A stretch of 64,000 bases of DNA from Saccostrea echinata (lineage: Eukaryota): positions 11,160,001 to 11,224,000 of the forward strand of contig NW_026889758.1 in the NCBI RefSeq assembly GCF_033153115.1. The letters run 5' to 3'. The number at the start of each line of letters is the position of its first letter. The stretch's first letter is position 1. This document shows positions 4,877 to 43,686 of this stretch, piece by piece. Below the pieces are notes generated by a model. That model saw only the letters and a program-made list of their open reading frames with translations, searched no databases and was not told the DNA's origin. A program made the translations under genes and the position numbers.

Positions 4877-4936
4877 CTGAAATACATATAGCAATATTTT
4901 AAAGCATGTATATTGTAATACATCAGTCGGTACATG

Positions 4937-8190: not shown

Positions 8191-9060
8191 ATGATGAAAA
8201 TAATCTCTCTCGCCTGCATCGTTGCCTGCGTTTGTGCGGATTATTACCCAAAAAGTGGGGATTACTATCCAAAGAGTTATGGATATGATTATGGATATGG
8301 GGACTACTATCCCAAGAGTTACGGATTTGGTCCATATGGTAGCTTTGGAGGTGTGAACGGTGGACTCGTTGGCTTTGGCGGTATAAACAGCGGCCTCAGT
8401 GGCCTGGGAGGATACTATCCCGGTTTGGTCGGTATTGGAGGCGGTTCTGCTGCTGCTGGTTCAGCTTCCGCCGGAGGTGCTGCTGCTGCCGCCACTGCTG
8501 CTGCCGCTGCCAGACAAAATGCTGCCGCCTCCTCTGCATGCTGCCGCAGGAAACGGTGCTGCTGCCACTGCTGCTGCTGCAAGTGGACTAAACGTTGCCC
8601 CATACTATACCTATCCTGGGTATTATTACCAGGGACAACAATACTACAACTTCCCCAGCTACTACTTTAATCAGTATTCCAGAAACTACTTCCAATACCC
8701 TTTTCATGGTGTTGGAGGTGGGTCTGCTGCTGCTGCTAGTGCTGCCGCCGCTGGTCAGGCTGCCGCTGCTTCTTCTGCCGCCGCCAGTCAAGGATTTAAT
8801 GGACTCAATAATGGCGTCATTCTTGGAAGACATGAAGGTTTTATCGGCAGAAGATCAAGAAAGGTAAATTGTATTAAAAAGAATGTTTTTGTTTCTTAAT
8901 TGATGATAATGACTTTTTATTAATTATAGATAATAAAAGATATTTGTTATTAATCTGAATTTTTATGCACGATCTTTATTCATTGAAAAACCAAACTTTT
9001 TAAAAACCTTTTGCTTTCTGAGGAATTTAATGATTCGTCTTTTACTTCCAGGTTTACTAA
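8191..9060 (+). pseudogene. shelk2: Shelk2-like silk/shell-matrix protein, divergent paralog A, with +1 frameshift
   Basis: Signal peptide MMKIISLACIVACVCA, DYYPK repeats, Gly-rich and poly-Ala blocks. One extra base at ~8538-8539 (gca-t-gct) shifts from ORF 8191 to ORF 8399. Intron 1 7931-8187, intron 2 8864-9051, last exon GTT TAC TAA 9052-9060, aataaa 9124. Repaired product 226 aa ending RRSRKVY. Family name from recall, not from a search. Confidence 0.8.
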
Positions 9061-9692: not shown

Positions 9693-9884
9693 GCCCATAC
9701 TATACATATCCTGGGTATTGTTACCAGGGACAATAATACTACAACTTCACCGGTTACTAGTTTAATCAATATCCCAGAAACTACTTCCAGTACCCAAAAC
9801 ATAACACTTACAGTCCTTTTGTTGGTGTTGGAGGTGGGTCTTCTGCTGCTGCTAGTGCTGCCTCCGCTGGTCAGGCTGCCGCTG
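9693..9884 (+). pseudogene. Shelk2-like gene fragment (type A), two in-frame stops
   Basis: Reads PYYTYPGYCYQGQ*YYNFTGY*FNQYPRNYFQYPKHNTYSPFVGVGGGSSAAASAASAGQAA; aligns to ~8600-8770. Confidence 0.85.
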
Positions 9885-15592: not shown

Positions 15593-15668
15593 TTAATGTA
15601 ATATTTTTACTATTTTCCTTACGGTTTGGAGAAGCTTGGAATTGTCAAAATATTACAAACAAAGTTTT

Positions 15669-16184
15669 AAGGTTTTTAAAAAGTTTGGTTTTTCAATGAA
15701 TAAAGATCGTGCATAAAAATTCAGATTAATAACAAATATCTTTTATTATCTATAATTAATAAAAAGTCATTATCATCAATTAAGAAACAAAAACATTCTT
15801 TTTAATACAATTTACCTTTCTTGATCTTCTGCCGATAAAACCTTCATGTCTTCCAAGAATGACGCCATTATTGAGTCCATTAAATCCTTGACTGGCGGCG
15901 GCAGAAGAAGCAGCGGCAGCCTGACCAGCGGCGGCAGCACTAGCAGCAGCAGCAGACCCACCTCCAACACCATGAAAAGGGTATTGGAAGTAGTTTCTGG
16001 AATACTGATTAAAGTAGTAGCCGGGGAAGTTGTAGTATTGTTGTCCCTGGTAATAATACCCAGGATAGGTATAGTATGTTGCAACGTTTAGTCCACTTGC
16101 AGCAGCAGCAGTGGCAGCAGCACCGTTTCCTGCGGCAGCATGCAGAGGAGGCGGCAGCATTTTGTCTGGCAGCGGCAGCAGCAG
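15669..16184 (-). pseudogene. Inverted 516-bp duplicate of shelk2-like locus A (8495-9010)
   Basis: Reverse complement matches 8495-9010 with about 3 mismatches; includes the frameshift and part of intron 2; lacks promoter, start and last exon. Confidence 0.95.
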
Positions 16185-16561
16185 ACTAAGTGCACATTTA
16201 TTAATGATTGAGAAGGGAAGATTTACTAGATCTTCCCTTCTCAATCATTGATAAATGTGCACTTAGTCTATATTTTGAATATACTTGGTTGGAATTTGTT
16301 TCATTAAGTAGGATTGCATGCACAGCTTATTTGTTAGATATCTATACACAGAACACTTTGGTGACAAGAAAAAAAGCCTCGCATTCTTGTTGAAAACAGT
16401 CAGTTAATCTTTGTTAATTTTTTTTTAAAAAACATATTTTTGTTTGTAATATTTTGATAATTCCAAGCTTCCCCAAACCGTAAGGAAAATAGTAAAAAAA
16501 ATTACAATAAGTAACCAGTTATGTCTTATACAAGGACTTGTCTCAAGTCTTTCAAGCATAT
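16183..16561. repeat. Fold-back inverted duplication of LINE sequence with 87-bp hairpin at 16183-16269
   Basis: agactaagtgcacatttattaatgattgagaagggaagat mirrors atcttcccttctcaatcattgataaatgtgcacttagtct; ~16437-16561 is the reverse complement of 14870-14924 joined to 15597-15663. Confidence 0.9.
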
Positions 16562-18711: not shown

Positions 18712-18823
18712 CTCTTCAAGTGGAGGACTAAACACCGGATTCTTCAACACTGGAGGTCTCAACACAGGAATGTTCGGTCTTGGAGGTGGGTCTGCTGCCT
18801 CTGCTGCTACACAAAGTGCTGCT
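18712..18823 (+). pseudogene. Orphan shelk2-like fragment (type B)
   Basis: SSSGGLNTGFFNTGGLNTGMFGLGGGSAASAA; about 90% identical to 23217-23303. Confidence 0.85.
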
Positions 18824-21596: not shown

Positions 21597-22130
21597 CGTA
21601 CATGAAAATTGTTTCAAAGCTAATAGGTATTTAAAGATAAAGAATAATACTTACCCAAAAACAAGAATGACCAAAGTTTAATTCAAACCAAAAAAGGACT
21701 TTCTGCATCTTGTTGCATATTATATCAGTATATGTCATTGTATAGTACATATAACATACCAGTGTACATTTGTCTCAATTCATATGTTTCAAATATTTTT
21801 ACAATTTTTTTTTAAATATGACGTGATTCGTGGATTTTAAGTTTGAAATCAAAATATTATTTGTTGTCAAAATTATGTTTTATGTGTACACTTTTCTTTT
21901 CTATTTTTCTATTTTTCTAATTCTGGGTCTATTTGGTTCTTGTGTCTTTCAATGACCATTCCTTCAATTGTGATAAAAATATTATTGAAATGTCAACCTG
22001 CATGTTCATGTAACCAGCAATTACGACCACCAACATTTAAATTACATTAGAGTGTAGGGTTTTGATCGACTCGACGAAGAACTGAGCAGATTTTTTAGGC
22101 AAGAGAAGATTTATTTTGCACGGGAAAAAA

Positions 22131-22254
22131 CTCTTGAAACTTAAAATGAATCCAGGAAATAAAATTACCTGTAGAAGTATCAATGGATTTTGATTACGTG
22201 CAAGTGGTTGGAAATTAATAGCCTTATTATGCAATGACAAAGAATAACTCATTT
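22131..22254 (+). promoter_or_regulatory. Conserved distal upstream block (candidate enhancer) of gene B1
   Basis: About 89% identical over ~124 bp to 39737-39859 upstream of gene B3, while neighbouring DNA aligns poorly. Confidence 0.45.
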
Positions 22255-22792
22255 AATTTTTTTTAAGTGAGACAAGCACAATTGTGACACGCACCTTTGA
22301 AGTACAATCTTCTCCCATAATCATAAATCTAATTTGAGCACATCATATATCATTTAACAAGAAAGAAAATAAATGAGTTGAAACAACCAGTAACACCGAC
22401 TTCATGTTAAAATATAAATAAATTAAATCCCATTCATCAATGTACATATAGAGAGAAAAAATGAAATAAATAAGAAAATAAATAAATAAAAAAAATTATC
22501 CTGTATAAATCATTTCATAAGTCCAAATCGTTTTTTAAAGTTGTTTGCTTAAGATACTGTTGGTGAAAAATCTGGTGAAAAAGAAGTATTAATTTATTTA
22601 TAAGAAATGTCTTGAAAAAAAAATTCTGCGTTACGCATAATTTATTAAGATTTGGCAGTTCACAACTAACTTTTAATAATGACCAACTCCAAGGAATGTT
22701 GATGTCATCCTGTCAATCATAATACTCTTCCTTAAAACTTAATTTTAGTTATTATTAAAACAAGAAATTAATCACATTCACCGCCCTTCCGT

Positions 22793-22846
22793 GTGACGTA
22801 ACCATTTGGAAACTATATAAACATCGATAATTCGAAAATTCTGTAC
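22793..22846 (+). promoter_or_regulatory. Core promoter of gene B1
   Basis: tgacgtaa 22794, tatataaa 22814, ctgtac 22841; exon 1 donor aag|gtaaga at 22882/22883. Confidence 0.8.
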
Positions 22847-23045
22847 AAACAGTGGTTGCCTTCAGAAGACCGTTCAAGCAAGGTAAGATTACAGCTATAA
22901 GATATTAGTAACACTACAGTTATTCTAGATACTGTTAATAAAATTCCTATAAATGAATCAATTCCTACCAAAAAAGATCATAACACTCTACATGGTAATA
23001 TTATTTTTCTCATAAATAAATAATTGAACTTTTTTTCAACAGAAA

Positions 23046-23947
23046 ATGTTGAGACTCATCTCCATTGCCTGTATCGTTGCCTGCGTCTTCGCAGACTCTT
23101 ACCCAAAGGGTGACTATTACCCTAAGAATGACTACTATGGTGGATGTGGAAAATATGGATGCACATACGGTATCCACTCTCAAGGTCCCTATGGTAACTT
23201 TGGAGGAATAGTCAGCTCTACAAGTGGAGGACTTAACACCGGATTCTTCGGCACTGGAGGTCTCAACACAGGATTGATCGGTCTTGGAGGTGGATCTGCT
23301 GCCGCAAGCGCTGCCGCCGCCGGAGATGCTGCCGCTGCTGCTAGCGCAGCCGCTGCAGGACAAAATGCTGCCGCTGTTGCCGCTGCCGCCGCTGCCAATG
23401 GAGCAGCTGCTTCATCTGCTGCTGCCACCGGAGGTTTTGGATTGAACATTGCTCCATACTACTTCAATCAACCAGGATATTTCTATAATTTCCCAGGACA
23501 GTATGGAAACTTTGGTCAATACTACACCTATCCCAGACATTACTACAACAGTTTCCCCATCTTCAATAACTACGTCCCATATTTTGGTCTCGGAAGTGGA
23601 TCCTCCGCTGCTGCTAGTGCTTCTGCTGTTGGTGGAAGTTCTGCTGCTTCTGCTGGTGCTTCTGCAGGTGGATTTGGTGGATTCAACGGAATTTATGACG
23701 GAATCTTCCTCGGAGGATCAAGACGTAATTTCAGAAGAAGACACAGCAAGGTATGATTTAAACATCATTTGTAAGTCTTAACTTAGCGTCTCTCGAACGT
23801 CTTTATTTCGTTTTCTATCGAACAAGTTGAACCCTAGTTTAATTAACATAGTATATTAATATAATTTCCATATATATATTATCTATATTTTAATTTTACA
23901 AATAATTATGTGCTTATTGTTCTCTGCATATATTTCAGGTGTACTAA
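23046..23947 (+). CDS. shelk2: Shelk2-like secreted silk-like shell-matrix protein B1 (237 aa; coding 23046-23750 + 23939-23947)
   Basis: Signal peptide MLRLISIACIVACVFA, YPK/DYY N-terminus, GGLNTG repeats, poly-Ala blocks, Tyr/Phe/Asn-rich domain, basic tail RRRHSKVY. Intron 1 22883-23042, intron 2 23751-23938 (GT-AG), aataaa 23999. Family assignment from recall. Confidence 0.92.
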
Positions 23948-26900
23948 TGGATCCGGCCAATATAAACTGTTTCTGGTGATGTTTTGTTAATTTGTGATAA
24001 TAAATGTTTTATACTCAACATAGCTTTTTTATTTTCTAAATTCAATGCTGCAGAAGAAAAAAAAATTATTGGTATCCAATGAAAGGATTTTTTTAAAGCT
24101 CTTTAAAGTGATTATAAGAAGTATAGTGTTGAAATTTTGTAAAGCTACGTGTATAAGAATCTTTATACTTTTTTAATACAAAGATTGCAAAATTAAGAAA
24201 TACTTTCCAAGGAATAATAGAAAAATAAATATATATATTTTAAAGCAAGTTCGTATAATAAAAAAGTATACTGATATTGAGTCAATAGTGTAAGAAATAA
24301 TGACCGAATACCTCACCTCTACTGAGAGGAATTGAAACTCAGACCCATAAATTAAAGGGCTTAGTGTTTTAGTATTGAGGTTAGGAGATGCACAAAGATA
24401 TTATTTCCACTAAAATTCATCTACTTTGAGCATTTTCCTTTGTTTATTGAGATTTTTTTCCAATTGTAAAGTAATAGGAAGAGAAACTCGGCTGTATAGA
24501 TAAAGAGCACAATTATACAGAACTGACAAACTTCCTCAAGCATAGAGAGAGTGGAGGTGAAGAAATTTTGTTGAGCAATCGCTTTTGCTTGGATTACGAT
24601 ATTGTTGATATTGAATGCGATAATAAGAGCATGTTTTTGCGTGAAAACCAGACAAGGTATGCACCAGAGTTTACTGTTAGTAACCAGGCATATATTTAGA
24701 ATAAACACATTGTCCATTCAATCTGTCAATTAGAATATGCTAAGTCAGTGACATAAGTTTCATGTGTTGATATTGTTACAGTGAATAAAAGGTTTAAGAG
24801 AAAATGGGAAGACAATTAATTATTTGTTAAAATCAAACCATTTTGATTTTGAAGATGTACATTCTGGACTCAATAATAATAAAGAACCATATTCATATAT
24901 ACTAGGATATTATAATGTAAACGATTCTCGATTCTTCATTTCTGATCAGTATAAGGTCAGGGTTATTCTCAAACTATATATAGGGATATTTTATCTCTAT
25001 CGAGATATTTGTCAAACTCAAATCGAGGTACCATCAAATCACTAATTTTTGAGGGGGGGGGGGTAATTTTTGTTGTTTTTGAGGTATGAAGAGACCCACG
25101 ATTTATGCTCACCACAAAATGAAAAAGTGTCAAATACAAAACTACTCAATCATCCTTCAATCATAAAATCAAATCCCCACGAACCCATTGTTTTTCATCA
25201 AACAAGAAAAATTTGAACCCACGAGCATATGTGACTATACAGTATTTTACGCAGGTGTATATAATTTCGATTCCTTTGAAATTGTTGTACGTGATTTTTT
25301 TTTTCAATTGTAATATCCAGAAGTATTTTACTTTAAGCAAAATACTTAAAGTATAAAGTAGCTTATTGATTAAATCATTTTGTGTTACATTTTCCCTTTT
25401 AGAGAAGGGAAGTAAATGGTTATTGATTTTTGGTGTTTAAGATTTTGTTTTCATCTATTATTATTATAAACAAATGTACCTGAAACCATTTCAAACTTTC
25501 AGAATTCCAAGAAATGCAAATTTATACAAATACAAATTTAGCGATCTCAGCTGGATTTCTACTGGATTTCTGGAAATACGTCAATATATCGAAAATGATC
25601 AAACTCATAAATCTAGCAAACATGGCAAAAACACAGACCCCTTAATTACAAGAAGTTGGAGCAGGTGCTTAGAAGGGGTGAGCATCTCCTGTCGACTTGT
25701 CACACCCGCCATGAACCCTCTGCATCTATCATTCAAACGGAGCAATCCGTAAGATGCATAACAACATTGCCTTGAATGTCGGTCAAAATACGAACCGAAT
25801 CAATTTAGAAAGAGGTATATTGAAAGCCATTATAGATAATGGGAAAACTTCATAAATGATTTTTTCTGTTTGCATGTCTAATGATCTATTAGATATATAT
25901 TTTTATTGAAGATATATATATTTATAATAATCCTTGGACGATATAGTAGCAATGTAATTGATCAATGACATTACTGAATATTCTACACTTTACAATGCTC
26001 TTAATCGTATTTAATTATTGTTTTATTTACTACAAATATTATGCATGAAATATATTTCAAAGGCTGTATACTGTATTAATATTGATTACAATTTTTATTT
26101 CTGTCTTTTGATTTCAATCGGTGTATAATTTGTATACATGTATTTGGGTAAGGTTTTTTTTGTAATTTATTTATTCATTTTTGTGTACGTGTGTTTTGAA
26201 AATCCTACTTTGCAATAAACAAAATTGTTTTTCTATTTTTCGGACTTTGTACTTTTCAAAAAAAAATATTCATTAACCCATTCTTTTTTTTAATAAGTTC
26301 TATATAAAAAAACAGGGCACTTAAGCAATAGCAAATGGGTCCTTTTTAGTTCCATTTAAAAAATATCTTGTTTTGTAATAATTTAACATTGGTGGATATA
26401 CTTCTGATTAAAAATCACGTGCAACATCACCAAGACTGGCATGGATAGCAAACTACTAGGGCTTTTTTAATTGCTATAGATAATCCAGAAAAATAATATC
26501 GAAGCTACTAACATCAAGGGAAGGACTCGACTGTTGAACAAGCTGATGGTGGATCGATGTGCACTTTTGTCGAATGATAAATTCGAATAGAGCTATGTAA
26601 GTTGTCTGTAGTCATAGTGATAAAACTAAGAGTTTTGCACGCTAGCATTTGATATAATAGAATAAAGAAAGTATAAGTTTCTCTATCCATTCGAGGCAAG
26701 GATTTTAAATTACAAAAAAGTATTTAGGTGCAAAAGGCCGAACTGTTTTATTGTACATTTGTACTTGCATTTAAGTAGACAGTTGATCTATTTTGTTATC
26801 AAAGTTATTTGAAGCCAGAAGAACTTCACAAGAAAGTATCATAAAATAGAATATTGAAATAAAATTTTGAAATAAAAAAAATCGTACAGATAGTTTTCGC

Positions 26901-27463
26901 TAAGTGTTGTAAAAATAAAAATTATTGTTGATTTTTTAAAAAAATTTTATATTTAAGAAACTTATTGGAAATAAGCTTTTGAACTTTAATGGTTTATCCA
27001 GAAATTAAATACATGTATATGCATGTAGTTTATTGTACCTTTGTATAGTTTCATAACATTATGGCTTTTAATACCATCGTCTTTCATTATGGATGTTTAA
27101 AATTTGATATTTATGTATGATGACATTTTAAGCGACACCAAATTCCCGTTACCTTCCCGTTTTTCATAAAATCAAACATAGATACATGCAAACATATAAA
27201 ATATAAAGCATAACATGTCTTTGGCGAACGATATAAAACGTATTATTTTACAGTGAACAACTTTGACTAACAATAATATGGGTAGAAACTCGCGTAACTT
27301 TTTAAAATAATTTTTCAACAGGTGAGCTCAATATCGGTAACACGAGTAAATAGCTCTCGCTTGCTCTAAAAAATATTGAAAATGTCCATACGTTTTTATA
27401 TTTTAATTACCAGCCTAATGTTGTTCAAATTTCTTTTCTTTTCCTCAAGTTTTCTAATACATA

Positions 27464-27820
27464 AGGGCCTAGTAGTCACGGTAGCCTAGTGGTAGGGCGC
27501 TCGCTTCGTGATTGGGAGGCCAGGGTTCAATTCTCGTTCGCTGCTCCACGTCAAACCTTAAAACATAAAAATAGGTAGTGGCTGTTCCTTCGCCAAGTGC
27601 CCGCCACTAGAAATGAAACTCACTGGTCTTTCAGATGAGACTTTAAAAACAGAGGTCCCGTGTCACGGTAGGCACTGGCACAATTAAGGACACTCACTGC
27701 TCAATGGCCGTGGGTGCCGAGTATAGGTCTAAATTTGAAGCCCTTCACCGGCACACGGTGACGTTTCTATATGAGTGAAAAAATCTCAAATGGGACGTTA
27801 AATAGCATACAATAAATCAA
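27464..27820 (+). mobile_element. tRNA-derived Meta-core SINE, full length
   Basis: A-box tagcctagtggta, B-box ggttcaattctc, shared core and tail; TSD tctaatacata at 27453 and 27821. Confidence 0.9.
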
Positions 27821-27897
27821 TCTAATACATAGGGCGTCCCTTATCTTTTGCGCAACGTTAGGCTAGCTGACAGTTAACAAAGGCTTTGAAATGAATA

Positions 27898-28104
27898 CTG
27901 TAAACTAACTATTATTTGCGACATTTTTTATTCGCGATTTGTAAGTTTCAAACTTATCCGCGACGACTAAGTTTTGCGACCGAGGAAATATTCCGCATGA
28001 ATACATAAGGAAATAAATAGTTTGCGGCAAGAAATATTCGCGAGTAAAGCAAGGTCGCGAAACTCGCGGATATTTCTCACACGCGAATAAAAGTTGGTTT
28101 ACAG
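27898..28104. mobile_element. Tc1/mariner-type MITE
   Basis: TA|ctgtaaactaactattatttgcg ... cgcgaataaaagttggtttacag|TA; internal tcgcga motifs. Confidence 0.8.
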
Positions 28105-28799
28105 TACCTGTCCTAGATCTACTATAGAAATTCACGAATGTTGGCTGACCCCTACGGCATTGTATGGCTTTGCTCTTTTTAGATATTTTTATTTCGGCAC
28201 TAAAGCTTGTTAAATTTTATGATTTATATTCCAATTGATAATGTGAGCTGAAAAATTATGCTTTATTTGAATCTTTATTTTTTCACATTTTAACGGAGCC
28301 CATAAGCTCACTTGTTCTTTTATAATTTGTCAATGATTCAAATCTCTGTTTTAGCTTTTGACAGGTTGAAATCTATAAACATCTTTTAAAGATTCAAGTT
28401 TGTTCAACACAATCAGAAGATGCACAGATGTCCAGTCAGCTTTTTCTAACTCCTCAACAACCAAAGCAGACTCAACATTTTTCATAGATCGAATTCTCTA
28501 CGTATTATGTTTTCTAAGTAAACTACTCAAATTGCTATTGTTTAAAACATCAAGTTGTGATCGTTGAGATAATTTAGATAATTTAATGAAATATGATCAA
28601 ACAGCGATGAGTTCATGTCTGAGATTCTGGTTGAACTTGAATTCATTTCAATCAAAGAAATACAGTATGTGTCTGCATCCTTCATGTGAAAAAACGTAAA
28701 GATAGCAAACTGCAATCTATCTCATATACCCTGTATACAGTACAAACTTATACAGGGCAAAATACGGACCTCTGGAAACACCAGAGGTGAAATCAGGCT

Positions 28800-28922
28800 C
28801 CGGGGCCATAAAACTTGGACGAGCTCACTTTTGATCTCGGTCTCACTTTTACCAAAGGAATTAATAGTAGAAAAGTGAGACTGAGATCAAAAGGGAGCTC
28901 GTCTAAGTTTTATGGCCCCAGG
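28800..28922. mobile_element. Palindromic MITE with GGGGCC termini (PIF/Harbinger-like)
   Basis: ggggccataaaacttggacgagctcacttttgatctcggtctcactttt mirrors aaaagtgagactgagatcaaaagggagctcgtctaagttttatggcccc. Confidence 0.8.
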
Positions 28923-30378
28923 GCCAGATTTTTAAATGATTATAAATGTTTAATGAATTAAAGAAGATGTGCTTGGTACTGATAATTTTTAAAACTATTT
29001 TCAAAAATACTCTCAAAAGTTAAAAGAGAACCCATTCTTTTAAAAGAATGTAGAATTCATGAAAATACTGAACCAGAAATATGTACTTTACAAAAATTGC
29101 TATTGAGTTTATAGCCCCAACTTCAAAAAATAAAGTGGGTAACTTTACTAGATGAGTCAATCTCAGAAAAAAAACTGGAAATTTTATTTTATAAATGCCT
29201 CAATATGCACAAAACAGACAAAAACAATTTATACTCAGTATCGAGCACTGATGAATTACATTGCTAACAACTCCTTTCTTCATAAAGTTAAGCTCTCAGA
29301 AAATAGTTTATGTATATTTTTAATAGTGTAACAGAGACAATAATTCACTTATCACATGACTGCGTATATTTGACTGTATTTTGGACTTTTTACAATGATT
29401 TAAAGTCGTTGAAAAAGATTACAAAATATCCAAATGAATTGGTTTACTTGGTTACATAGAAGAAAGATGTTTCGAAAATTTTATCATATTAGTTGCAAAA
29501 AATTTTATTTATTATTCAAGATCACAAGCTTCTAAGCCAATATTTACTAATGCAGTGAGTTTATATAAGTATTATAGAAACATAGAAAAAATATATGAAA
29601 ACATATTTCAATGTAAGAACAAAATGCTTACTTAATGGGCCATGTATAATTTTGTCTACAAAGAGTGATGAAATATCAAAATTATATCTTCTTATCCTCG
29701 CTTTTTCGATATATTTTTGCTTTGTTTAGATAAAATACATGGTTAAATGTCAGATTTTTACATTCTATGTACATTATTTTATTAAAAAGAAAGCGCACTG
29801 TGTGAGTGTGTGTTAGTACGGTGGTAAGTGGATATATGTTTGTATATATATATAAATATGAAATGCTTAAAACATAAAATGTTAAAAAAGAATTCAGATG
29901 CCTAGGAAGACTATTGATTGGTCACACCAACCATGAGTTGTATTTTTTCTATTCCATATCATTAACGAGCCAGTCACAAAAATTAAACACAAGTAAAATT
30001 TAAGTACTCATTAATAATTTATTTACAGAAGTGTCACAAAGAATAAATGGTTGTTATAGAAATACCACGACTGATTATTGAAACAATAAATGGTTTTAAA
30101 ATGACACTTCCCTGTATGCAAAATTCACGAAAACCAATCCGCACATTAAGGCGGTGCAATTGATTAATTTACAAACTTTGAGAAAATCTGTGCACATAAT
30201 TAAAAAGAAAAAAATCTATTAATGCAATGAAGGTGAATGAATTAATTTCTTACAAAATGAAATGACTTTGAATGCCGGACAAAATCATGAAACATTTATT
30301 TTTTCGTTTTGTTTGCATATAAAATATTTGAATCACCTAGAAATAGATATTTGACAGTTTGAAAACAATAAAATATAC

Positions 30379-31608
30379 CCATAAAGGGCCACAAATCTCT
30401 ATTTACTCATCTTGGTCTTTTTGATTTTTCGAAGATTTGTAAAAGAATTTTTCCTTCTTTATTATCATTCAAAATTTTGGTCCTGCACTAAGGCTCAATC
30501 CTAGCCCCAAAGACGCAGATTTAAACGTAACCAAACATGAATCCACATAACATGGAAAATAAATTTAATGCCTCAATATCAATACATCAGTGTCCTTACT
30601 GTGTTGGAGATGTTTTCCTGAATATATACATTATGTAAAATTGTTGCTCTATTTGCCCCCCCCCCCATCCCCACACCCCAAAAAAATTAACGCCAGGGTC
30701 CATAATATATGCAATGGATCTCATACAAGTTTTGAATGTCAGATAGTATTAAAGTGAAATTTCAGTGGGTTTCGTATTTTATGTTCTGATTTTTTTTAGA
30801 TGGATCACTGATTGTTATCACCTTATTCATATAGCAAGTTTTGAATAAACCACTTCAAAAAGTTTCATTTAATTTTTTTTTTATTTCATTTAATGTATTT
30901 TTTTCTGGTCAGTGGTTCTAAAACGAAAAACTTGAATAACCCCATCCTATGATTTTCTTGTCTTTTTTTTTTATCTCCCTATAAAGGGAACTACTTGAAC
31001 AAATTGTAACCATCGTTCTTACACAAGGACACACTCAAGTACACTGTGAGACAAGTACACTGTGAGACAAGTACACTGTGAGACAAGTACACACTGAGAC
31101 AAGTACACTGTGAGTTAAGTACACTGTGAGACAAGTACACTGTGAGACAAGTACACTGTGAGACAAGTACACTGTGAGACAAGTACACACTGAGACAAGT
31201 ACACTGTGAGACAAGTACACTGTGAGAGAAGTACACACTGAGACAAGTACACTGTGAGACAAGTACACACTGAGACAAGTACACTGTGAGACAAGTACAC
31301 TGTGAGACAAGTACACACTGAGACAAGTACACTGTGAGTTAAGTACACTGTGAGACAAGTACACTGTGAGACAAGTACACTGTGAGACAAGTACACACTG
31401 AGACAAGTACACTGTGAGACAAGTACACCGTCAGACAAGTACACACTGAGACAAGTGCACTGTGAGACAAATACAATCTGAGACAAGTTTCAATGGTCAA
31501 AGAGAAGAGAAGGAAAATGTGCAAATTTTGTAATGACGCCGAGAGAGACAACAGACAATTTTTTATTTGAAAAGCTCATTTGAGCTCTTGTTTCAGGTTG
31601 GCTAAAAA
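30379..31608. mobile_element. Degenerate HINE/pearl-type element hosting a minisatellite
   Basis: Terminus aaagctcatttgagctcttgtttcaggttggctaaaa preceded by a gacaacagaca remnant; left end approximate. Confidence 0.5.
31036..31488. repeat. 16-bp minisatellite (caagtacactgtgaga / caagtacacactgaga), ~28 units
   Basis: Direct reading; explains the repetitive minus-strand ORFs. Confidence 0.97.
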
Positions 31609-34311
31609 TAGCAAGTATAGTAAACAGAAGATGCATTTGTCATTTAGCGCTAGTAGTACCTGGCCATAAGTACCTGTATACGTAACATGAAAATTAGATA
31701 TGAAAATAATTTTTCATATTAGCAACACGAACACCAGTACATTTTTTCATTAAAACTCAACACCTTTCAAAATCGCTTTGAGGTTGATTTTAAATTTTCA
31801 AGTTCAGGGGCTAAAGAAAAAAAGGAAAATAATAAACATAAACCTATCATGAAATTCAAAGACACAACTAAAGCGACAGAAGAAAATCTAAAGCTGTTCT
31901 AACTCTGTATATGTCAATGGATTGTTGTATGTTATTCAATAGTTCAACGTCCCATTCTCATTTATATAGATACGTCGATATTAGCAGATCAATAGACAAA
32001 AAACTTAATGATTAAGAAAACACATAAGTATAACAAGTTATAAAGAATAGAAAAATAAGAGATAATCAAAATTTAAAAAAAAAATAAATAAAAATAAGTA
32101 TATTTTTTTAAAAATAATACTAATTAATAAATAAAAAGACCAATTTATTAATTAATCAATTAATTTTAAAATACATAATGGCAGATAACATTAACAAACA
32201 CGTGTTGTTTGTCAAATTTAGGTCTACATTCTTGAATGTTTTAAATCATTAGAAATTATTCAAATTATTAGATATGCCTTTTGTTTATTCTAAAATTAAT
32301 TTTAAAGTAAAGTAAAAGGTTCACGGTGTATCTAACTAGAACATTTTGATATCATATAAATAAAGCATCCTCAGATTCAATATATATTAAAGTGAATTAC
32401 CGAAAACACAATGTTTCATGTAATAAAAAATAATTTGTACATGTCAATACAAATTTCAATAGTGCAATATCCCCATGCATTTTACCTAAGAAAAAAATGC
32501 ATACTACATGGAATAATACATTTCATTTGTTTGTTTCAAAGAAATTAAACAATCTTTAAAATATTAGGAAAAAAACCTATCCACTTGCAAAAAAAAAAAC
32601 CCTGACAGTCTATCATACTTAGATAAGTCTTACACTTTAATTTTACTCAAGTCATATGTTTCATAATTATGATTCAAAAATTGTTTTGTGGTTGAAATTT
32701 TACATCAAATTTTTGTTTATTGTCAAAATAACATTTTCTTATTAAATGTTTATATATATCATTGGATTGAGGTAATGAACAATGTCAATCTACTATTTTT
32801 AGGACGTATCATTTCCATCAATTCGATAAAAAAGTTCTAAATTATAAATTCATAACATACATAAATTAACTTATAATGATGATTCAAAGTAGACACTTGA
32901 ATATGTAGAATTAATTGGATTTTTTTCCCTTCCATTCTTAAGGATACATATCACAAACAATTTGATGCATGGATTGTTATATATCTTAACTGATTATGAA
33001 TGGAAATGACATAAATAATAAATCCTTAAAATATACAAAGAAATTGTAAGTTCTCATTGGTATTTAGGTATGCGACTTTGAGTAGTTTTCTATACAATTC
33101 TATATAAAATATTGCACACATTTTTATCATTGTGACAAAATATTGCAAATTTTCCCACTTTACCTGGCAAACATTATTCAGGTTACCTATTTGAATATAA
33201 ATCTATGAGAAATATTGCTGATATCTAAAAAACGTTTCTGTTATTTAACCTTAATATTATAGCATTTTGAAAATTAAAACAAATCATTAATGTTTTTTTT
33301 AATAGAAAATATTGACAAGATCAATCTATTTTCTGATTTATCTTTTTCATGTTATACATTATTTATGAAGATTTCCTATTTCACAAATAGCTTAAAATAA
33401 TAATAATAATAATAATAATACAAATATTGACTGGGGATGATGAGAACAAGAATGATTATTTTAGCCTCCAATTGATAAGATATTGCCAGACGAAGAGTGG
33501 AAGGTAATATTTTCATCCCGAGGAGGCTAATATATTCAATGCAAAACACATGTGTTTTGTTATAGGAATACCATTTTTTTTTATCCAAAACAAATCAGTA
33601 ATATAACATTGGAAACAAATTCATTTAAATAAATAATTTAAATTTTGTATCCCTTTATTTATTGTGATGCCATGTTTTTGAAAGTCCCGACGTTATCATT
33701 ACGTCACAATATATTAGTATACTGATCAGAATCAAGATCAATAAAAATGTGGGAATACTCTCCTTTCCGGTCAATAGGGAAAAAAATAAATGACTGTCAA
33801 TATTTCTCGGAGGATCTAATATCAATTATATTGACTGCTTTTATGCATAGAGAATAAAGAGATATTCTTTACTGAATTATCATTCCGTAAATCAGAACAA
33901 ATAATATTCCTGTAAATCTATACAGAAGAAGAGTATTTAAATATGATATACGAAAAAATTCTTTTGTATTAATAATAATTTCTTTAAAGCACAAATTTTA
34001 GAATTCCAAACAGTGTTTTTCTAAAGTTATGTTCTTAAGATAATATTGAAAAGGAAGGAAAATGTTCTTTTGAAAAGAAGATCAATTGAATTTTCAGAAA
34101 ATACAAAAAATAGTTATCTTTTTATATTTTTATCTTTTTATGGTTTACGCATAATTTATAATTTGGCATTTCACAACAAACAATTTTTAAATTATCAAAT
34201 TTTAGAATAATTAATGTCATTCTGTCGATCACAGAAAAGCTTCCTTTTAACATCAATTTGGTTATTATTAAGACAACTTTAAGAAATGAATCACACTAAC
34301 CACTCTTCCTT

Positions 34312-34365
34312 GTGACGTAAGCTTTTGATAAGTATATAAACACTGTTGCTTTGAAAACTCTGTAC
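34312..34365 (+). promoter_or_regulatory. Core promoter of gene B2
   Basis: tgacgtaa 34313, tatataaa 34333, ctgtac 34360; exon 1 donor aaa|gtaaga at 34404/34405. Confidence 0.8.
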
Positions 34366-34580
34366 AAGAAGCAGTGTTAGCCTTGTGAAGAGCAGCAAAG
34401 CAAAGTAAGAGTACAAATATTAGACGTATTATTAAAAACGCTACAGTTCTACGAGGCACTCTTCATAAAAGTTGTTTCATTGAATAAATTTTAAGAGTTG
34501 AAAGAAGATCATATCGCTTCACATAAAATTATGTTTTTATATCTTTTAAATAAATAATTGAACTTTTTTTTCAACAGAAA

Positions 34581-35448
34581 ATGTTGAGACTCACCTCCCT
34601 TGTCTGTATTGTTGCCTGCGTTTTCGCAGACTCTTACCCAAAGGGTGACTATTACCCTAAAAATGACTACTATGGTGGATGTGGAAAATATGGATGCACA
34701 TACGGTATCCACTCTCAAGGTCCCTATGGTAACTTTGGAGGAATAGTCAGCTCTACAAGTGGAGGACTTAACACCGGATTCGTCAGCACTGGAGGTCTCA
34801 ACACAGGATTGATCGGTCTTGGAGGTGGATCTGCTGCCGCAAGCGCTGCCGCCGCCGGAGATGCTGCCGCTGCTGCTAGCGCAGCCGCTGCAGGACAAAA
34901 TGCTGCTGCTGTTGCCGCTGCCGCCGCTGCCAATGGAGCAGCTGCTTCATCTGCTGCTGCCACCGGAGGTTTTGGATTGAACATTGCCCCATACTACTTC
35001 AATCAACCAGGATATTTCTATAATTTCCCAGGACAATATGGAAACTTTGGTCAATACTACACCTATCCCAGACATTACTACAACAGTTTCCCCATTTTCA
35101 ATAACTACGCCCCATATTATGGTCTCGGAAGTGGATCCTCCGCTGCTGCTAGTGCTTCTGCTGTTGGTGGAAGTTCTGCTGCTTCCGCCGGTGCTTCTGC
35201 AGGTGGATTTGGTGGATTCAACGGAATTTATGACGGAATCTTCCTTGGGGGATCAAGACGTAATTTCAGAAGAAGACACAGCAAGGTATTATCTAATTTT
35301 CATTTGAAACTCTTTCTTTCATTTTATGTTAGACAGTTTAAGCTTTTTATTAACAAGCTATATCAAAATCGTCTTTTGCGTTCATTATCATTCAAATTTA
35401 CAGATAATTTGTGTTCATTTCTCTCTGCATATTTTTCAGGTGTACTAA
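34581..35448 (+). CDS. shelk2: Shelk2-like secreted silk-like shell-matrix protein B2 (237 aa; coding 34581-35285 + 35440-35448)
   Basis: About 97% identical to the B1 coding exon; intron 1 34405-34577, intron 2 35286-35439; last exon GTG TAC TAA; aataaa at 35461 and 35503. Confidence 0.92.
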
Positions 35449-35685
35449 TGGATCGGTCCAAATAAAAATGTTTCTGGTGACGTATTGTTAATTTGTTATT
35501 ATAATAAAGTTATATACTCAAAGCAGTTTGTTGTGATTTAAATTTTATGCTGGAAAATAAAAAAATATTTTCAAAAAAGGTATTGTTGATAAATACGGTG
35601 TGAAAAATTTGTGAATTACTAGGCATTTTGTTTTGTTATACTACCTGCTTCAGTTTTACGATTCAACTTCAAGAATACAAGATTG

Positions 35686-35723
<38 letters not shown>

Positions 35724-37254
35724 AGGAATAAAAGTAAAGTTGAAGTATTTCTTCCAATTTCGTAAAAATAACGTTGATCACATTGGTGGTGGACCCTTGT
35801 CATGGTCAGGTAAACTGAGATATGCATAGAAAATTCAAATATAAAAAATAATTACCGAACAATGTATTTAAAAGTCAGTATATCGTCCACGGAATTTGCA
35901 GTTGAAAGTCACTGATAATCTTGTATCTTTGACTTATTTGTCAATAAACTGCCTCGGTTTAGAAATTATTAATACGTAGAACACGATCTTGCTTATCGAA
36001 TCAAGCGGGAGACATAAACTCAGTATATATGCAGGTGATGATGGTATAAAGATTCATAAATAAGAGAAATTGACGATAGAAAAGTTGAAGTGAGATACGT
36101 TTCTAATACAGGTTAGTTGTTAATTTGTCATTGGTCTCGTTCTCCTAGCCACCTGATCCCGCATTCTGTGTTTCCAGGGGGTCCGTGTTTTTGGACTGTT
36201 CACGATTCGTTTTGTTTACTGGATTGATGAGATTTGTCAGTTTTCGTTATCTTAACCTCTTACATTCATTAGATATTCAGATATGGAGCAGATGCATCAG
36301 ACTAGTGTCTTCTAGTTCGAGTTCAGTGGGATATATGGAACGTATAAATCATATTTCTAATTATGAAGCGTCGTTGATATATCCAAATGTTGTATTGAAG
36401 GCCTTTTTTCGTGTAGAAGTTTTTGAAATTTTTTTGCTTTTTTTTAAAGAATGAAGAAACAGGTATACTTATAACGAGAGAAATTAATATCCATGAGATA
36501 TCAAACAGATTGTAGGAAGACCAGGTCTCCAAAGACTACACAATTACAGTGTATTGTAAATAAGAAACCGTATAATAGGTAATTTTTGCGATAATCAAAT
36601 TTTTTTGAGCCTCTTTAGATCACAAAAAATGAAAACGCAATAACTTGTCATTAGTTATGCAACATAAAGATTACAGAGATAAACCAAGTAAACCACTGAT
36701 AGAATCACAGAAAAAAAAACAACGCAAAGTAACAAAAAAAAGTTTTGGGACATTTTCGCAAAAGTGAGCAGAAAAAAAGTAAGATGGTATTGATATTAGG
36801 TCTTAGCTAGTGGCAAGTGTGAGGAGTCGACAGGGGATGCTTATTTCTCCTCGGTACATGATTCAACATCCGGTGTGAGTAGTTTTTTTTTACCCTCTTT
36901 AGTATTGTTTACAGAAGATTGATTACGGTTCGTTATCTCACTTTTTACATTATACAAGACGACATATTGGCAGAATACCCCACAAAAGCAAAGAAACCAG
37001 AATCTGAAAGGGATGAGTACTTTCACATTGATGTAGAGATTTGCAAGAATAGTTATTCTTCCGCTTAAAATCCACCTACTTTGAGAGCGTTTCTAAATTT
37101 GTTAATTGACGGTTTTATTCAGATGTAAAGTAATACAGAAGTCTACTCTGTTTTGACAAAGAACCCAAATGAAACGTATGGAACTAACAAAATTTTTTTA
37201 AAAAAATTAACCATGCATGGACTTAGTGAAATGAAGAAATTTTCTTCATTTTTG

Positions 37255-37497
37255 ATTAATTGTTTGTTTATTAATTTGTTTGTTTAACGTCTCTTCGAGA
37301 ATTTTTCACTCATATTCAGACGCCACCACTTGCCGGTGGAGGGCTGCAAATTTATTCCTGTACTCGGCACTTAGGCCTTTGAGCAGTGAGGGATCTTTTT
37401 CGTGCCAGCACCTACTGCAACACGGAACCTCTTTTTTACGGTCTCATCCGAAATTCTCGAACGGGGCGTAAAACAACATACAATCAATTAATCAATC
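37255..37497. mobile_element. Chimeric SINE remnant: minus-strand core and tail fused to a plus-strand tail
   Basis: 37255-37452 is the reverse complement of SINE core and tail; 37451-37497 aaattctcgaacggggcgtaaaacaacatacaatcaat is a forward tail. Confidence 0.8.
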
Positions 37498-37679
37498 ATA
37501 ATATGTATATTCATGTGGCACTCAACAATTAATAGCATAAGAACCCTTTTTGAAAAAAATTGGAGTGTTGAATGTGAAAGGTTCCCGATTTTTCATCTCT
37601 GAACAATATTTAGGGCAGGATATATGCTGCGTAGGGTATTGTTGTTGTTTTATGTCCCTTGAATTCATAAAATTTTACC

Positions 37680-38751
37680 AAAATCAATAACATCAAAACG
37701 TACGACTTTTGAACACTTTATACAACAATTCACCATGATAAATTAAAGTCGAGGCTTTTTGACATCATAGACGACTGCTTTTTCAATAAAAATGGAACTA
37801 GTAAATTTTCTTACCTTGTCATTAGTCATTTGCAAAATGATTTTGATAAAAACATTCTGAATGTACACTAAGTACTCCGAAACAGATATCAAAAAGATGC
37901 TTGAGTTTCTGATTTACAATATCTGTGTAGTTTTTGGAGATCAGGTCTTCCAACAATTTGTCGGAATTTCCATGGGTATCAATTGTGCCCCTTTTTTATA
38001 TTTTCGTAGCAGAATTCATTCAAAAACTTATACTTGAGTAGAAGAAAACATTTGCTGTGCCATTCAACTCGACATTTAAATATATCGACGACGTATAATC
38101 AATTAACAATAGTTACTTGCCAGTGAACTTGAAATAAAATATACCAAAGGGTTCGATAAATCTGTTTCATATTTGGATATTTTACTAGAAAAAATAAAGT
38201 TAATGGTTACCTAACAAAACTTTATGATAAATGTAATGACTTCAACTTTTCTATCGTCAACTTCCCTTACTTATGTACATGTAGCAATATACCCTTATTA
38301 CCTGCAGATGGGATCTTCCAGTTGATTCGATACGCAAGAGCATGTTCCACGTACAAACCATTTCTAAAACGAGGCAAACTATTGACAAACAAGATGATGA
38401 ATCAAGGATATCAACAGTCTCGTTTAAAGTCAACATTTTGCAAATTCTTTGGTCGATTCAACGACCTTGTCAGTGAATAAAATCTATCATTGAGTCGAAT
38501 GCTTACTGACGGTTTTCACACTAATTGTTAAGTCATTATTTAAACACTGAATTGCCTATGGATTCTTCGTTTGCCCGATCATGATAATTAGCACACAAGG
38601 GGTGTGACTGGTCGACAGGGGAAGCTTACTCCTCCATGGCACATGATCCCATTCTGATGGTTTTTAGAGTTCCGTCTTTGCTCAGCTCCCAATTTGTATC
38701 ATTTTAATGGATTTTTGAGCTTGATTACCGTTCGTTATCTCCATATTTCAT
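37680..38751 (+). mobile_element. Penelope-like retroelement, decayed RT and 3' end (possibly Naiad-type)
   Basis: KTYDF*TLYTTI, MLEFLI, QQFVGISMG.NCAP, FKYIDD, SIVNFPYLC, QLIRYARAC; RT runs to the element end with no C-terminal GIY-YIG visible. Confidence 0.85.
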
Positions 38752-39736
38752 TGCAAGATTATTTCACTCATATGATTGTAGTGAAATGTCCCGTTTAAAA
38801 TCATACATCCCTGAGCCGATAAAGAAGCATTTAGACAAAAGAGTGATATCAAAAGCAAAATCTTATTAATTGAATTTCAGCATTATCAGTATGGCATGTA
38901 TTAATGTTGTAAAAGTATAGTGGCATTCATCAATTTTGTCGGAGGTATTTTTTTTAAATGAATGAACAAATAAATAAAAAATATAAAGTAAATTAAAAAA
39001 TTGGAATATTAAGAAACATTTTTTCACAAATATAAATCTTCAATCTAGAATGTGCCCCTTAGTTAGGAATGTAGTTTTAAGTTATCAGACATCAGTGCCT
39101 TCTACTTATTTCTAAGAATTAGCATAAGCGAAAGCTTTCCCGATCAATCTCAAAAACAATTTTGATGTTTAGATTCACCAAAGGCATTTTTTTTTACGTT
39201 GTCCATTTATTATGTCATATAATAAATAGTTTTCAAGCTTTTATGTCAATGTTATACTGATACGCTGTTTCATGTTTTTATTTCTTTCAATGATCAACCA
39301 ATTGTTTAAATTTCACAATAATTTTGTTTCAAAAATACATGTATTGAAAATTCTGAAAAACAAATAAGAGAGAAACATACCTCCTAGCAAGAATCAAACA
39401 TGTGTTACAAACCTTAACGGCAATTTCCATATATAATACTGGACAAATGCAAGTATTTGTATATAGGTTACACTTACATTTTTCTCAATTCATATGTTAC
39501 CCGTGATCTATGAATATGATTTGATTTGAATTTAAATTTGATATTAGAATGATATTTATTTCCAATATTGATAACTGCTTTAAATAACAACAGTTGATGC
39601 ACTGAGCAATTTACACATCTACGATTCTTAGAGCGTAAATTTCCAATGAAAAAAGTAAAACGTTAGGACATTTATTTTACACTGCTGTCATTTGAATACA
39701 TAGGTAATAGTTTATCTGTTTTGCACTAAAACAACC

Positions 39737-39859
39737 CTCCTGAAACTTAAAATAATCCAGGAAATAACGTTACGTGTAGAGGTATCAATGGATTTTAAAA
39801 ACGTGCATGTGGTTGGAAATTAATAGCTTTATTGTGCAATGACAAGGAATAACACATTT
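39737..39859 (+). promoter_or_regulatory. Conserved distal upstream block of gene B3
   Basis: Homologous to 22131-22254. Confidence 0.45.
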
Positions 39860-40480
39860 CATTTATTTCGATTCAGTGTGAGACAAAGGCATTATTTCGC
39901 CCACCTTTTAACCAAAGAATACTTCTTTGATTATGAATAAAATTTGCATATCTGACGTGTCGTTCAACGCCACAGAGAACACGAGATGATACTACACTTA
40001 ATGTTACAGCAATTCTTTTACAACCATTAATGTACAGATATTGACTAGTAATTATGATCCAAAGAATATACCTGTAAATGTATACAGAAATAAAGAATTA
40101 AGATATATTATAAGGGAATTTCTTTTGTATAAATAAGAATTATTTTAAAGCCAAATTTCAGAAGTCCCAAACAGTGTATTATTCAAGTTATTTTTTAATG
40201 ATTATATTGAAAAAAAAAGAGCAAATATTCTTTTAAAAAGAGATTAATTTGAATTTTCAGAAAATTCTAATAAAATAACTATTTTTAATCCTTCTATCTT
40301 TCTATGAATTAAGCATAATTTATGAAGATTCAGCATTTCACATTGAACTTTTGTTTTAAATTATCAAATTTTAGAATAATTAATGTCATTCTGTCGATCA
40401 CAGAAAAGCTTCCTTTTAACTTCACTTTAGTTATTATTAAGACAACTCAAAGAAATTAATCACATTCAACACCCTTCCTT

Positions 40481-40534
40481 GTGACGTAAGTGTTTAATTA
40501 CTATATAAATACCGTTACTTTGAAAGTTCTGTAC
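40481..40534 (+). promoter_or_regulatory. Core promoter of gene B3
   Basis: tgacgtaa 40482, tatataaa 40502, ctgtac 40529; exon 1 donor acg|gtaagg at 40570/40571. Confidence 0.8.
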
Positions 40535-40735
40535 AAGCAGTAGTTGCCTTGTGAAGATCAGTAAAGCACGGTAAGGCTGTAAGACACCACTGTGATACAA
40601 AATACAGCTAAAATAATGATTGTAGTTAGAGCCGAAAAAATCGTCACACCATTCATTAAGTTATTGTCTTTGCTTTTGTGTGTATGTTTCTTTTTTCATT
40701 TTGAATAATTCATTTAACATCTTTTTCAACAGAAA

Positions 40736-41607
40736 ATGTTGAGACTCACCTCCCTTGTCTGTATTGTTGCCTGCGTCTTCGCAGACTCTTATCCAAAGGG
40801 TGACTATTACCCTAAAAATGACTACTATGGTGGATGTGGAAAATATGGATGCACATACGGTATCCACTCTCAAGGTCCCTATGGTAACTTTGGAGGATTA
40901 GTCAGCTCTACAAGTGGAGGACTTAACACCGGATTCGTCAGCACTGGAGGTCTCAACACAGGATTGATCGGTCTTGGAGGTGGATCTGCTGCCGCAAGCG
41001 CTGCCGCCGCCGGAGATGCTGCCGCTGCTGCTAGCGCAGCCGCTGCAGGACAAAATGCTGCTGCTGTTGCCGCTGCCGCCGCTGCCAATGGAGCAGCTGC
41101 TTCATCTGCTGCTGCCACCGGAGGTTTTGGATTGAACATTGCCCCTTACTACTTCAATCAACCAGGATATTTCTATAACTTCCCAGGACAATATAGAAAC
41201 TTTGGTCAATACTACACCTATCCCAGTCATTACTACAACAGTTTCCCCATTTTCAATAACTACGTCCCATATTTTGGTTTTGGAAGTGGATCCTCTGCTG
41301 CTGCTAGTGCTTCTGCTGTTGGTGGAAGTTCTGCTGCTTCTGCTGGTGCTTCTGCAGGTGGATTTGGTGGATTCAACGGAATTTATGACGGAATCTTCCT
41401 CGGAGGATCAAGACGTAATTTCAGAAGAAGACACAGCAAGGTATGATTTAAATATTATTTGCAAGTTTTTCTTTCATTTTTTATTGAACATATATGTTCA
41501 ACGAATTATATTTATTTTATTCCCGTTCGTGTCTACGATAATTAAATTAAAAAAAAAATGAAAACACATTTGTAAATTGTTTTCTCCATCTTTTTCAGGT
41601 CTACTAA
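40736..41607 (+). CDS. shelk2: Shelk2-like secreted silk-like shell-matrix protein B3 (237 aa; coding 40736-41440 + 41599-41607)
   Basis: Near-identical to B1/B2; intron 1 40571-40732, intron 2 41441-41598; last exon GTC TAC TAA; aataaa 41663. Confidence 0.92.
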
Positions 41608-41854
41608 GGGATCGAACTCATTTAATACTCTTTGTGGTGATGATTTGGTGTTCATTTGTGATAATAAATAATCTGTACTCAAAATATATATATTGATGTT
41701 TTCAATAAAATGCTGAAAAAGACCATAAATTTCCGAATAAAGAACAACAAAAAAATTATTGTTCTTTATAATCATTTGAGATAGAATTGTAAAGGATTTT
41801 GAATCCATGGACGTCTGTTTCAGAGTTATATATTTAGGAAATGATGGTATATCT

Positions 41855-43370: not shown

Positions 43371-43686
43371 TACGGAAGCCGGTAGGTGCCAGGTAGAAAA
43401 ATATTTTATCTGGCAGCCGCCAGATAACTTTCTGGCGGCCGCCAAATAATTATCTGGCGGCCGCCAGATAAATAACTGGCGGCCGCCAGAAACTTATCTT
43501 GCGGCCGCCAAATGATTTTCTGGCGGCCGCCAGATAAAAAGATCTGGCGGCCGCCAGATAAGTTATCTGGCGGCCGCCAGATAACTTTCTAGCGGCCGCC
43601 AGTTATTTATCTGGCGGCCGCCAGAAAGTTATCTGGCGGCCGCCAGATAAAATATTTTTTCTACCTGGCACCAACCGGCTTCCGTA
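43371..43686. mobile_element. MITE with TACGG termini, 6-bp TSD and internal palindromic tandem array (IS3EU-like)
   Basis: TIRs tacggaagccggtaggtgccaggtagaaaaa / tttttctacctggcaccaaccggcttccgta; TSD atcatg at 43365 and 43687; 11 units of ~tctggcggccgccaga. Confidence 0.9.

Follow-up and report, generated by a model that had tools for sequence, protein, structure and literature searches.

How can neighbouring genes share a nearly identical coding exon when the introns, untranslated regions (UTRs) and promoters around it have diverged widely? The question is raised by a stretch of 64,000 nucleotides from the oyster Saccostrea echinata (RefSeq assembly GCF_033153115.1, contig NW_026889758.1, positions 11,160,001 to 11,224,000 of the forward strand), called the window below and numbered from its first letter. 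Three same-strand gene copies, B1, B2 and B3, form an array at 22.8-41.7 kb of this AT-rich window. An earlier note, made from the letters of the sequence alone, had proposed that ongoing gene conversion homogenises their coding exon. Repeated interlocus gene conversion, in which one locus overwrites tracts of the long exon of another, indeed seems the best explanation for near-identical exons within diverged flanks, and we give it a probability of about 80%.

Coding exons and flanks of the B genes

Each B gene is laid out as a TATA box, a short non-coding exon 1, intron 1, a 708-nt exon 2 (235 codons), intron 2, and an exon 3 that contributes Val-Tyr-stop plus the 3' UTR, all on the plus strand. 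In B1 the TATA box (22814) and exon 1, whose start is predicted, occupy 22814..22882, followed by intron 1 (160 nt, 22883..23042, within the 5' UTR), exon 2 (23043..23750, with the ATG at 23046 and the coding sequence at 23046-23750), intron 2 (188 nt, phase 0, 23751..23938) and exon 3 (23939..24004, AATAAA at 23999). Both B1 introns are seen as GT-AG joints in contigs from public sequencing runs (11 listed), which are recognised as transcripts from their splicing alone; four of these runs (X1, X2, X9 and X10) were compared, against B1 only. Contigs from X1 and X2 have the exon-1 tail spliced to exon 2; X2 contigs show both joints, one of them skipping the 160 nt of intron 1, and the 188 nt of intron 2 are skipped in X1 and X2. 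Exon 3 is matched without a difference over 32 nt in X1 and 60 nt in X2.

The structures of B2 and B3 were inferred by alignment to B1. B2 has its TATA box and predicted exon 1 at 34333..34404, intron 1 (173 nt, nearest to that of B1) at 34405..34577, exon 2 at 34578..35285 (coding sequence 34581-35285), intron 2 (154 nt) at 35286..35439, and a predicted exon 3, again nearest to B1, at 35440..35508 (AATAAA at 35503). For B3 the corresponding positions are 40502..40570 (TATA box and predicted exon 1, with an upstream region nearest to B2), 40571..40732 (intron 1, 162 nt), 40733..41440 (exon 2, coding sequence 40736-41440), 41441..41598 (intron 2, 158 nt) and 41599..41668 (predicted exon 3, AATAAA at 41663). 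The three lengths of intron 2 are those previously claimed.

The coding exons are each 705 nt long and open, with no indels between copies. They differ at 18 (B1/B2; 11 synonymous and 7 nonsynonymous), 20 (B1/B3) and 16 (B2/B3) sites, being 97-98% identical, and the first of these counts agrees with the figure of about 18 without indels given in the earlier note. Synonymous divergence (Ks, NG86) is 0.066, 0.067 and 0.060 for B1/B2, B1/B3 and B2/B3 respectively, and nonsynonymous divergence (Ka) 0.013, 0.017 and 0.011. The poly-Ala tract (codons 85-129, 135 nt), said to be almost identical even at synonymous positions, proved to be so, with 1, 1 and 0 differences in the same order of pairs. Each copy nevertheless has private exon variants, at 11 (B1), 7 (B2) and 9 (B3) sites.

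Outside this exon the picture is different, aligned-site divergence ranging over 22-35% in the introns and 17-27% in exon 1 and the 3' UTR. The comparison of silent with intron divergence that had been proposed as a check supports conversion of the long exon: four-fold sites differ at 7/130, 4/129 and 7/132 (B1/B2, B1/B3 and B2/B3; 3-5%) and aligned intron sites at 74/307, 73/282 and 99/298 (24-33%; Fisher P 8e-7, 2e-9 and 2e-11), while exon 1 and the 3' UTR together differ at 25/129, 27/127 and 30/128 (against four-fold sites, P 6e-4, 5e-6 and 3e-5). The intron distances are underestimates, as the aligner yields about 68% identity on shuffled AT-rich sequence; the intron-1 mismatch counts used 172 nt for B2 and 161 nt for B3, one base short of the full lengths. 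Exon 1 is 76-83% identical among the copies. The proximal promoters of B2 and B3 are 89% identical without gaps (17/150 differ), which is not significantly different from four-fold sites (P 0.09).

Two features of the flanks qualify the original description. The introns had been called barely alignable, which holds for the core of B3 intron 1, not alignable above shuffles with B1 or B2 (z 2.6 and -0.3), but not for intron 1 of B1 and B2, which aligns clearly (z 14.5, 35/156 mismatches), nor for intron 2, alignable in all pairs (z 7-9). Homogenisation had also been described as restricted to the exon; identity does drop steeply near the splice junctions, but B1 and B2 are identical across the last ~30 nt of intron 1, bar one T in a run, and identity between B1 and B3 extends at least 12 nt into intron 2.

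These shoulders bear on the idea that conversion was templated by RNA or cDNA of an expressed copy, in which case identity would stop exactly at the splice sites. The steep fall near both junctions is what such a template would produce, and a LINE reverse transcriptase remnant at 14148-14558 shows merely that such elements exist in the genome. Yet identity runs past the junction on both sides of the exon, homogenisation is lacking in exons 1 and 3, although a cDNA would include both, and no B copy has lost an intron. We regard a cDNA template as a very slim prospect.

The exon is GC-rich, as the earlier note had it, but this is an amino-acid effect: four-fold G+C is 31/133 (23%) and intron G+C 249/995 (25%), and the GC richness arises solely from Ala and Gly codons, not from GC codon bias. 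With four-fold and intron G+C so close, GC-biased conversion and GC codon selection are both unsupported.

Old copies or a recent duplication?

Homology among the B loci is limited to ~1.4 kb and one 168-nt upstream block, the spacers sharing only short repeat matches, and non-crossover conversion is therefore favoured over unequal crossing-over. A whole-gene duplication or unequal crossing-over (birth and death) of recent date, followed by very fast turnover of non-coding DNA, would also leave similar exons in dissimilar flanks. It would fit the direct tandem orientation of the genes, their mosaic flanks (see below) and the instability of the region, with its gene fragments and mobile-element remnants. 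However, non-coding DNA would have to run 4-10x faster than four-fold sites, and unequal crossing-over would have carried spacer DNA along.

A relative of the B genes in the same window allows that rate to be judged. Gene A (8191..8863, plus strand), an older paralogue with a B-like exon layout and a frameshift near 8540, is 64% identical to B with 69 gap columns, and has escaped homogenisation with it. Its 3' part has been copied recently, in inverted orientation, to 15669-16184 (516 nt, minus strand). The copy has 3 mismatches in its exon part, where it carries the same frameshift, and none in 147 intron bases; the intron is intact, and introns here are therefore not simply hypermutable. Together with the affinity of X10 transcript ends to B3, described next, this makes a recent duplication of the B genes very improbable.

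Silent sites, transcript ends and shared states in a diverged relative

Run X10 contains a relative of the B genes: none of its 14 compared contigs (0/14) reaches 99% identity to B1, and there are 7-19 differences per 100-160-nt piece. Among 35 listed coding differences, 30 separate X10 from all three copies, 16 being silent, and 5 equal the B2/B3 state. Along one contig path, for which 33 of 52 differences are listed, at least 18 are silent over ~114 synonymous sites (at least 0.16), compared with only 5, 7 and 2 silent differences between the B paralogue pairs in the same stretch. The poly-Ala tract is not spared, having at least 8 listed differences, 6 of them silent, within 22 nt. The silent sites of the B exon are therefore free to change, which fits the view in the earlier note that selection on the protein alone is insufficient for their identity among the three copies. 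Published data on the oyster Ostrea edulis point the same way: diversity there is no different at synonymous than at non-coding sites, and selection on codons seems weak (PMC3564993).

The X10 transcript ends tell a different story from its coding exon. Loose contig ends supply 46 nt, of which 16 belong to exon 1 and 30 to exon 3. Mismatches number 11/46 to B3, 19/46 to B1 and again 19/46 to B2; over the same sites B3 itself has 17/46 against B1 and 14/46 against B2. The exon-3 30-mer finds its best site in the window at 41601, in B3 exon 3, with 7/30 mismatches (next best 10/30). Odd-one-out counts, comparing the UTR ends with the coding exon, give Fisher P values of 0.049, 0.004, 0.010 and 0.001 when all sites are used. 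X10 thus looks like a sister of B3 in its transcript ends, but its coding exon falls outside B1, B2 and B3 together. It therefore seems that the B exons group by lineage and their flanks by locus, a small version of the exon-by-species and intron-by-locus check suggested in the earlier note. This argument holds whether X10 comes from another species or from a further diverged copy.

Several states common to all three B copies point in the same direction. Codon 111 is Val in B1-B3 and of Ser type in X10, gene A and one more paralogue, from X2 and X9; base 232 is A in B1-B3 and T in both X10 and an orphan B-type exon fragment of 88 nt in the window (18712..18799, plus strand; 7 differences to each B copy), which adjoins a dispersed repeat; and all three B copies have Pro-Arg/Ser-His where X10 and the homologue P0005 have Pro-Gly-Asn. 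The states common to B1-B3 (Val111 and A at base 232) seem to be derived and to have spread to all three loci. X2 and X9 contain at least one expressed paralogue, ~700 nt long and with a longer middle part, that has no copy in the window.

The same data speak to an explanation without conversion, in which the copies of a highly expressed structural gene are old and selection on the protein and on silent sites (codon use, mRNA structure) preserved the exon while the introns drifted. A Ka/Ks of ~0.2 shows a constrained protein, contig depths of 1,000-9,000 in X2 and X9 would fit strong expression, although depth is not usable for ranking, and the most conservative version of the X10 test gives P 0.25 with silent sites only. 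But selection of this kind would have to accommodate the silent divergence of X10, poly-Ala tract included, the derived-looking amino-acid states common to the three copies (Val111; Pro-Arg/Ser-His) and a four-fold G+C equal to that of the introns, which leaves it quite improbable.

Are the assembled exons real?

Similar exons could also have been collapsed or averaged by the assembler, or B2 and B3 could be a single locus whose haplotypes were set next to each other. Gaps at 5-8 kb and 61 kb of the window, with 441 N in all, suggest a scaffolded assembly, and B1 alone of the three copies has been compared with reads. On the other hand, there is no N between 22 and 42 kb, each copy has its private variants, and the unalignable intron-1 core of B2 and B3 is too much for alleles. 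For B1 there is direct evidence: one 750-nt contig of the independent run X1 runs from the exon-1 tail via exon 2, with 1 difference in 708 nt, into exon 3. The assembled B1 exon is not a collapse, since this spliced contig reproduces its private letters, so that the outcome named earlier as a possible refutation is not borne out for this copy. X9, labelled as a different organism, barely departs from B1 and carries no outgroup information, and it does not cover exon 1 or exon 3.

At coding positions 81, 163 and 408, X2 contigs that end in exon 1 or exon 3 of B1 show letters of the B2/B3 type, and both states are present at 202/205; within the window the letter at 163 occurs in B3 alone, and X10 lacks it. 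Collapse is thus excluded for B1 only and is unlikely for B2 and B3, given the private variants and these X2 letters; an artefact of assembly is a most improbable source of the pattern as a whole. The B1-ended contigs with B2/B3-type letters also hint at shared polymorphism and ongoing exchange, such polymorphism being expected under interlocus gene conversion (PMC3924837). For the word "ongoing" in the original proposal this is the one hint.

A proposed model of exon conversion, and what weighs against it

The closest pair changes along the array: it is B2+B3 in the promoter, B1+B2 in intron 1, B2+B3 again in most of exon 2, B1+B3 in the last 144 nt of exon 2 and B1+B2 in the 3' UTR. Within the exon, the 27 variable sites do not follow a random order (runs P 0.014, max-chi P 0.005).

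We suggest that the three B genes would be old tandem copies whose long exon has been kept free of indels by purifying selection. With the loci 6-18 kb apart, no other stretch would have kept the length and similarity that ectopic pairing demands, and non-crossover repair would pass changes between the copies whether they are silent or alter an amino acid. The introns and UTRs, which are short and AT-rich, would have gained indels, dropped below the pairing threshold and since evolved per locus, with only short conversion shoulders reaching into them. Several interchangeable copies may have been kept as they raise the dose of the product, as the family resemblance of the protein would suggest. 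The need for pairing and the part given to purifying selection are taken from Fawcett and Innan 2011 (PMC3924837), their application to the B genes being our own inference.

Several points weigh against conversion. With silent sites only, the odd-one-out P values become 0.25, 0.038, 0.019 and 0.001, the most conservative not being significant, and the X10 test as a whole covers 46 UTR bases on two separate contigs of one run, in which the 5' end, the middle and the 3' end are not linked. The mosaic signal fades after merging neighbouring sites (runs P 0.27, max-chi P 0.06). As for X2, its short-word contigs can join paralogues across identical stretches, and most of its B2/B3-type letters could be ancestral B1 alleles; the read check covers B1 only, with spliced contigs free of introns. 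Finally, some selection probably acts on the UTRs and promoters as well.

Beyond conversion as such, it is possible, though doubtful, that conversion maintains one coding cassette common to the loci, which each keep their own promoter and UTRs, so that one protein would have three switchable promoters, the mainly expressed copy differing by lineage and the quieter copies acting as a reservoir from which variants enter the expressed shell-protein gene. Only B1-type ends occur in X1 and X2, and only B3-type ends in X10.

The protein product and its family

The predicted B product has 237 residues. In B1 it consists, in order, of a hydrophobic N-terminus (a predicted signal peptide), a DYYPK motif, a Gly-rich part, the poly-Ala tract, a part rich in Tyr/Phe/Asn/Pro, an Ala/Ser block and an Arg-rich end. 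The final two residues stand alone in exon 3, and the same KVY end is found in Magallana homologues. Intron 2 of B1 (from 23751) and B3 (from 41441) starts with GTATGA, so that an unspliced message would end in Lys-Val-stop, one residue short of the spliced Lys-Val-Tyr-stop, and the unspliced frame of B2 (from 35286) continues for ~60 codons. The exact unspliced B1 and B3 reading frames are absent from the protein collection searched, in which no close orthologue protein was found.

Homologue searches returned 6 matches, 5 of them named oyster proteins (E 2e-41 to 5.5e-14), 7 matches in a full profile search and 21 in another, all named homologues being oyster proteins labelled "spidroin-like", "antifreeze protein Maxi-like" or uncharacterised. 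B1 is 58-67% identical to three of them (P0001, P0002 and P0005) over aligned columns, and the DYYPK motif is present in 23/24 family rows, in which N-terminal hydropathy reaches 3.2. With the oyster poly-Ala silk-like proteins the B products have in common the hydrophobic N-terminus, DYYPK, poly-Ala blocks of the form GGSAAA...GQNAAA and a basic C-terminus ending in Tyr, and the two-intron layout of B is likewise present in gene A. By sequence, then, the B genes are placed in the oyster poly-Ala silk-like ("spidroin-like") family; in the family tree they form a separate branch within a shorter, Tyr-rich subfamily, apart from a longer, Ala-richer oyster group. Despite the label, no homology to spider spidroins is claimed. 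Pfam has no family (0) for B1, P0002, P0003 or P0005, residues 16-84, searched alone, found no match among 60 candidates, and a protein atlas comparison, with all scores at or below 0.78, was not used.

To judge from this family resemblance (PMC6542584, PMC4944945, PMC12040131), the B product, which is predicted to be secreted, would be a structural protein of the shell matrix; matches to Crassostrea spidroin-1-like and Shelk2 were found in shell extracts of other bivalves (PMC6542584). No entry called Shelk2 is among the protein clusters examined. Shelk2 is reportedly the subject of a paper by Takahashi from 2012.

Near-identical family pairs also occur in C. virginica and Magallana in the family tree; they were not counted as support, because proteins alone cannot separate conversion from recent duplication. 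Other oysters have family pairs with 93-96% identity (P0013, P0017, P0019, P0023; P0014, P0021), several on one chromosome-sized contig. In M. angulata, XP_052696471.1 and XP_052696472.1 are given by RefSeq as "isoforms X1 and X2", yet they are clearly different proteins and may be merged tandem genes.

Gene A and other elements of the window

Gene A matches S. echinata XP_061173261.1, at 77% in one frame and 87% in another, and is likely, on sequence grounds, its orthologue. The frameshift near 8540 amounts to one base; A-type contigs occur in X1, X2 and X10, and the spacing of the region is 175 bases in the window versus 177 in the contigs. The 516-nt copy of gene A is flanked by ~80-nt inverted arms (15604-15682 and 16420-16498), an arrangement that recalls the capture of gene fragments by non-autonomous DNA elements. 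A decayed A-type fragment with stop codons lies at 9694-9884. The reverse transcriptase remnant mentioned above (PF00078, E 3.5e-13) belongs to a broken LINE-type element at 13455-14961 on the plus strand.

Around the B genes, the 168-nt upstream block is common to B1 (22096-22263) and B3 (39701-39868), where it is 83% identical, and was not found at B2; one possibility is a conserved regulatory element that B2 has lost. Between B1 and B2 lies a 16-bp tandem array of 28 copies (31036-31488), and a 22-bp array at 43406-43650 is GC-rich and doubles as its own inverted repeat.

Comparison with known systems and significance

The closest parallels may be the cuticular protein arrays of Drosophila and Anopheles (Ccp84Aa/Ab, Cpr67Fa1/Fa2, Tweedle 97C), for which recurrent interlocus conversion has been described (Cornman 2009, PMC2793513). 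Like the B genes, these are tandem genes for secreted structural proteins with coding repeats, which Cornman suggested may promote conversion (PMC2793513), and a homogenised second exon, the tracts sometimes reaching into the flanks. They differ in encoding chitin-binding proteins of unrelated sequence and in that only part of the long second exon is homogenised, so that coding ends can diverge, whereas in B the whole 705-nt coding exon is homogenised in three copies 6-12 kb apart.

In yeast whole-genome duplicates conversion is, as in B, limited to coding sequence; non-coding homology has been lost, purifying selection keeps the pairing substrate and selection for dosage has been proposed, but these duplicates are dispersed and much older, whereas the B genes are in tandem with flanks mostly still alignable (Fawcett and Innan 2011, PMC3924837). 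Mosquito vitellogenin paralogues have a Ps of 0.03-0.06, near the B values, against 0.18-0.24 between orthologues, though unlike in B their introns and promoters are converted too (PMC2875236). Intergenic conversion in Argiope spidroins shows a different intron pattern (PMC9779670).

No report of concerted evolution in this oyster family was found in the literature searched, which left subscription journals mostly outside, and an earlier description is possible. In mosquito Hsp82 and Bombyx chorion genes conversion is said, in the titles of the reports, to be confined to the open reading frame or to part of the gene. Gene conversion itself is textbook matter, and the B array is probably a new mollusc example of a known process, adding a mollusc structural-protein family to the few tandem genes with a homogenised exon and diverging introns and promoters. 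Alongside the unconverted gene A and its recent duplicate, it would be a convenient place to study tract lengths and repeat-promoted conversion.

For those working on this family, RNA-seq reads and single-nucleotide polymorphisms in the B exon would not be assignable to a locus without the UTRs. Dates based on Ks would make the B duplications too young by a factor of 4-5, and in protein trees these old paralogues would pass for species-specific expansions, which is how shell proteins with low-complexity domains are commonly read.

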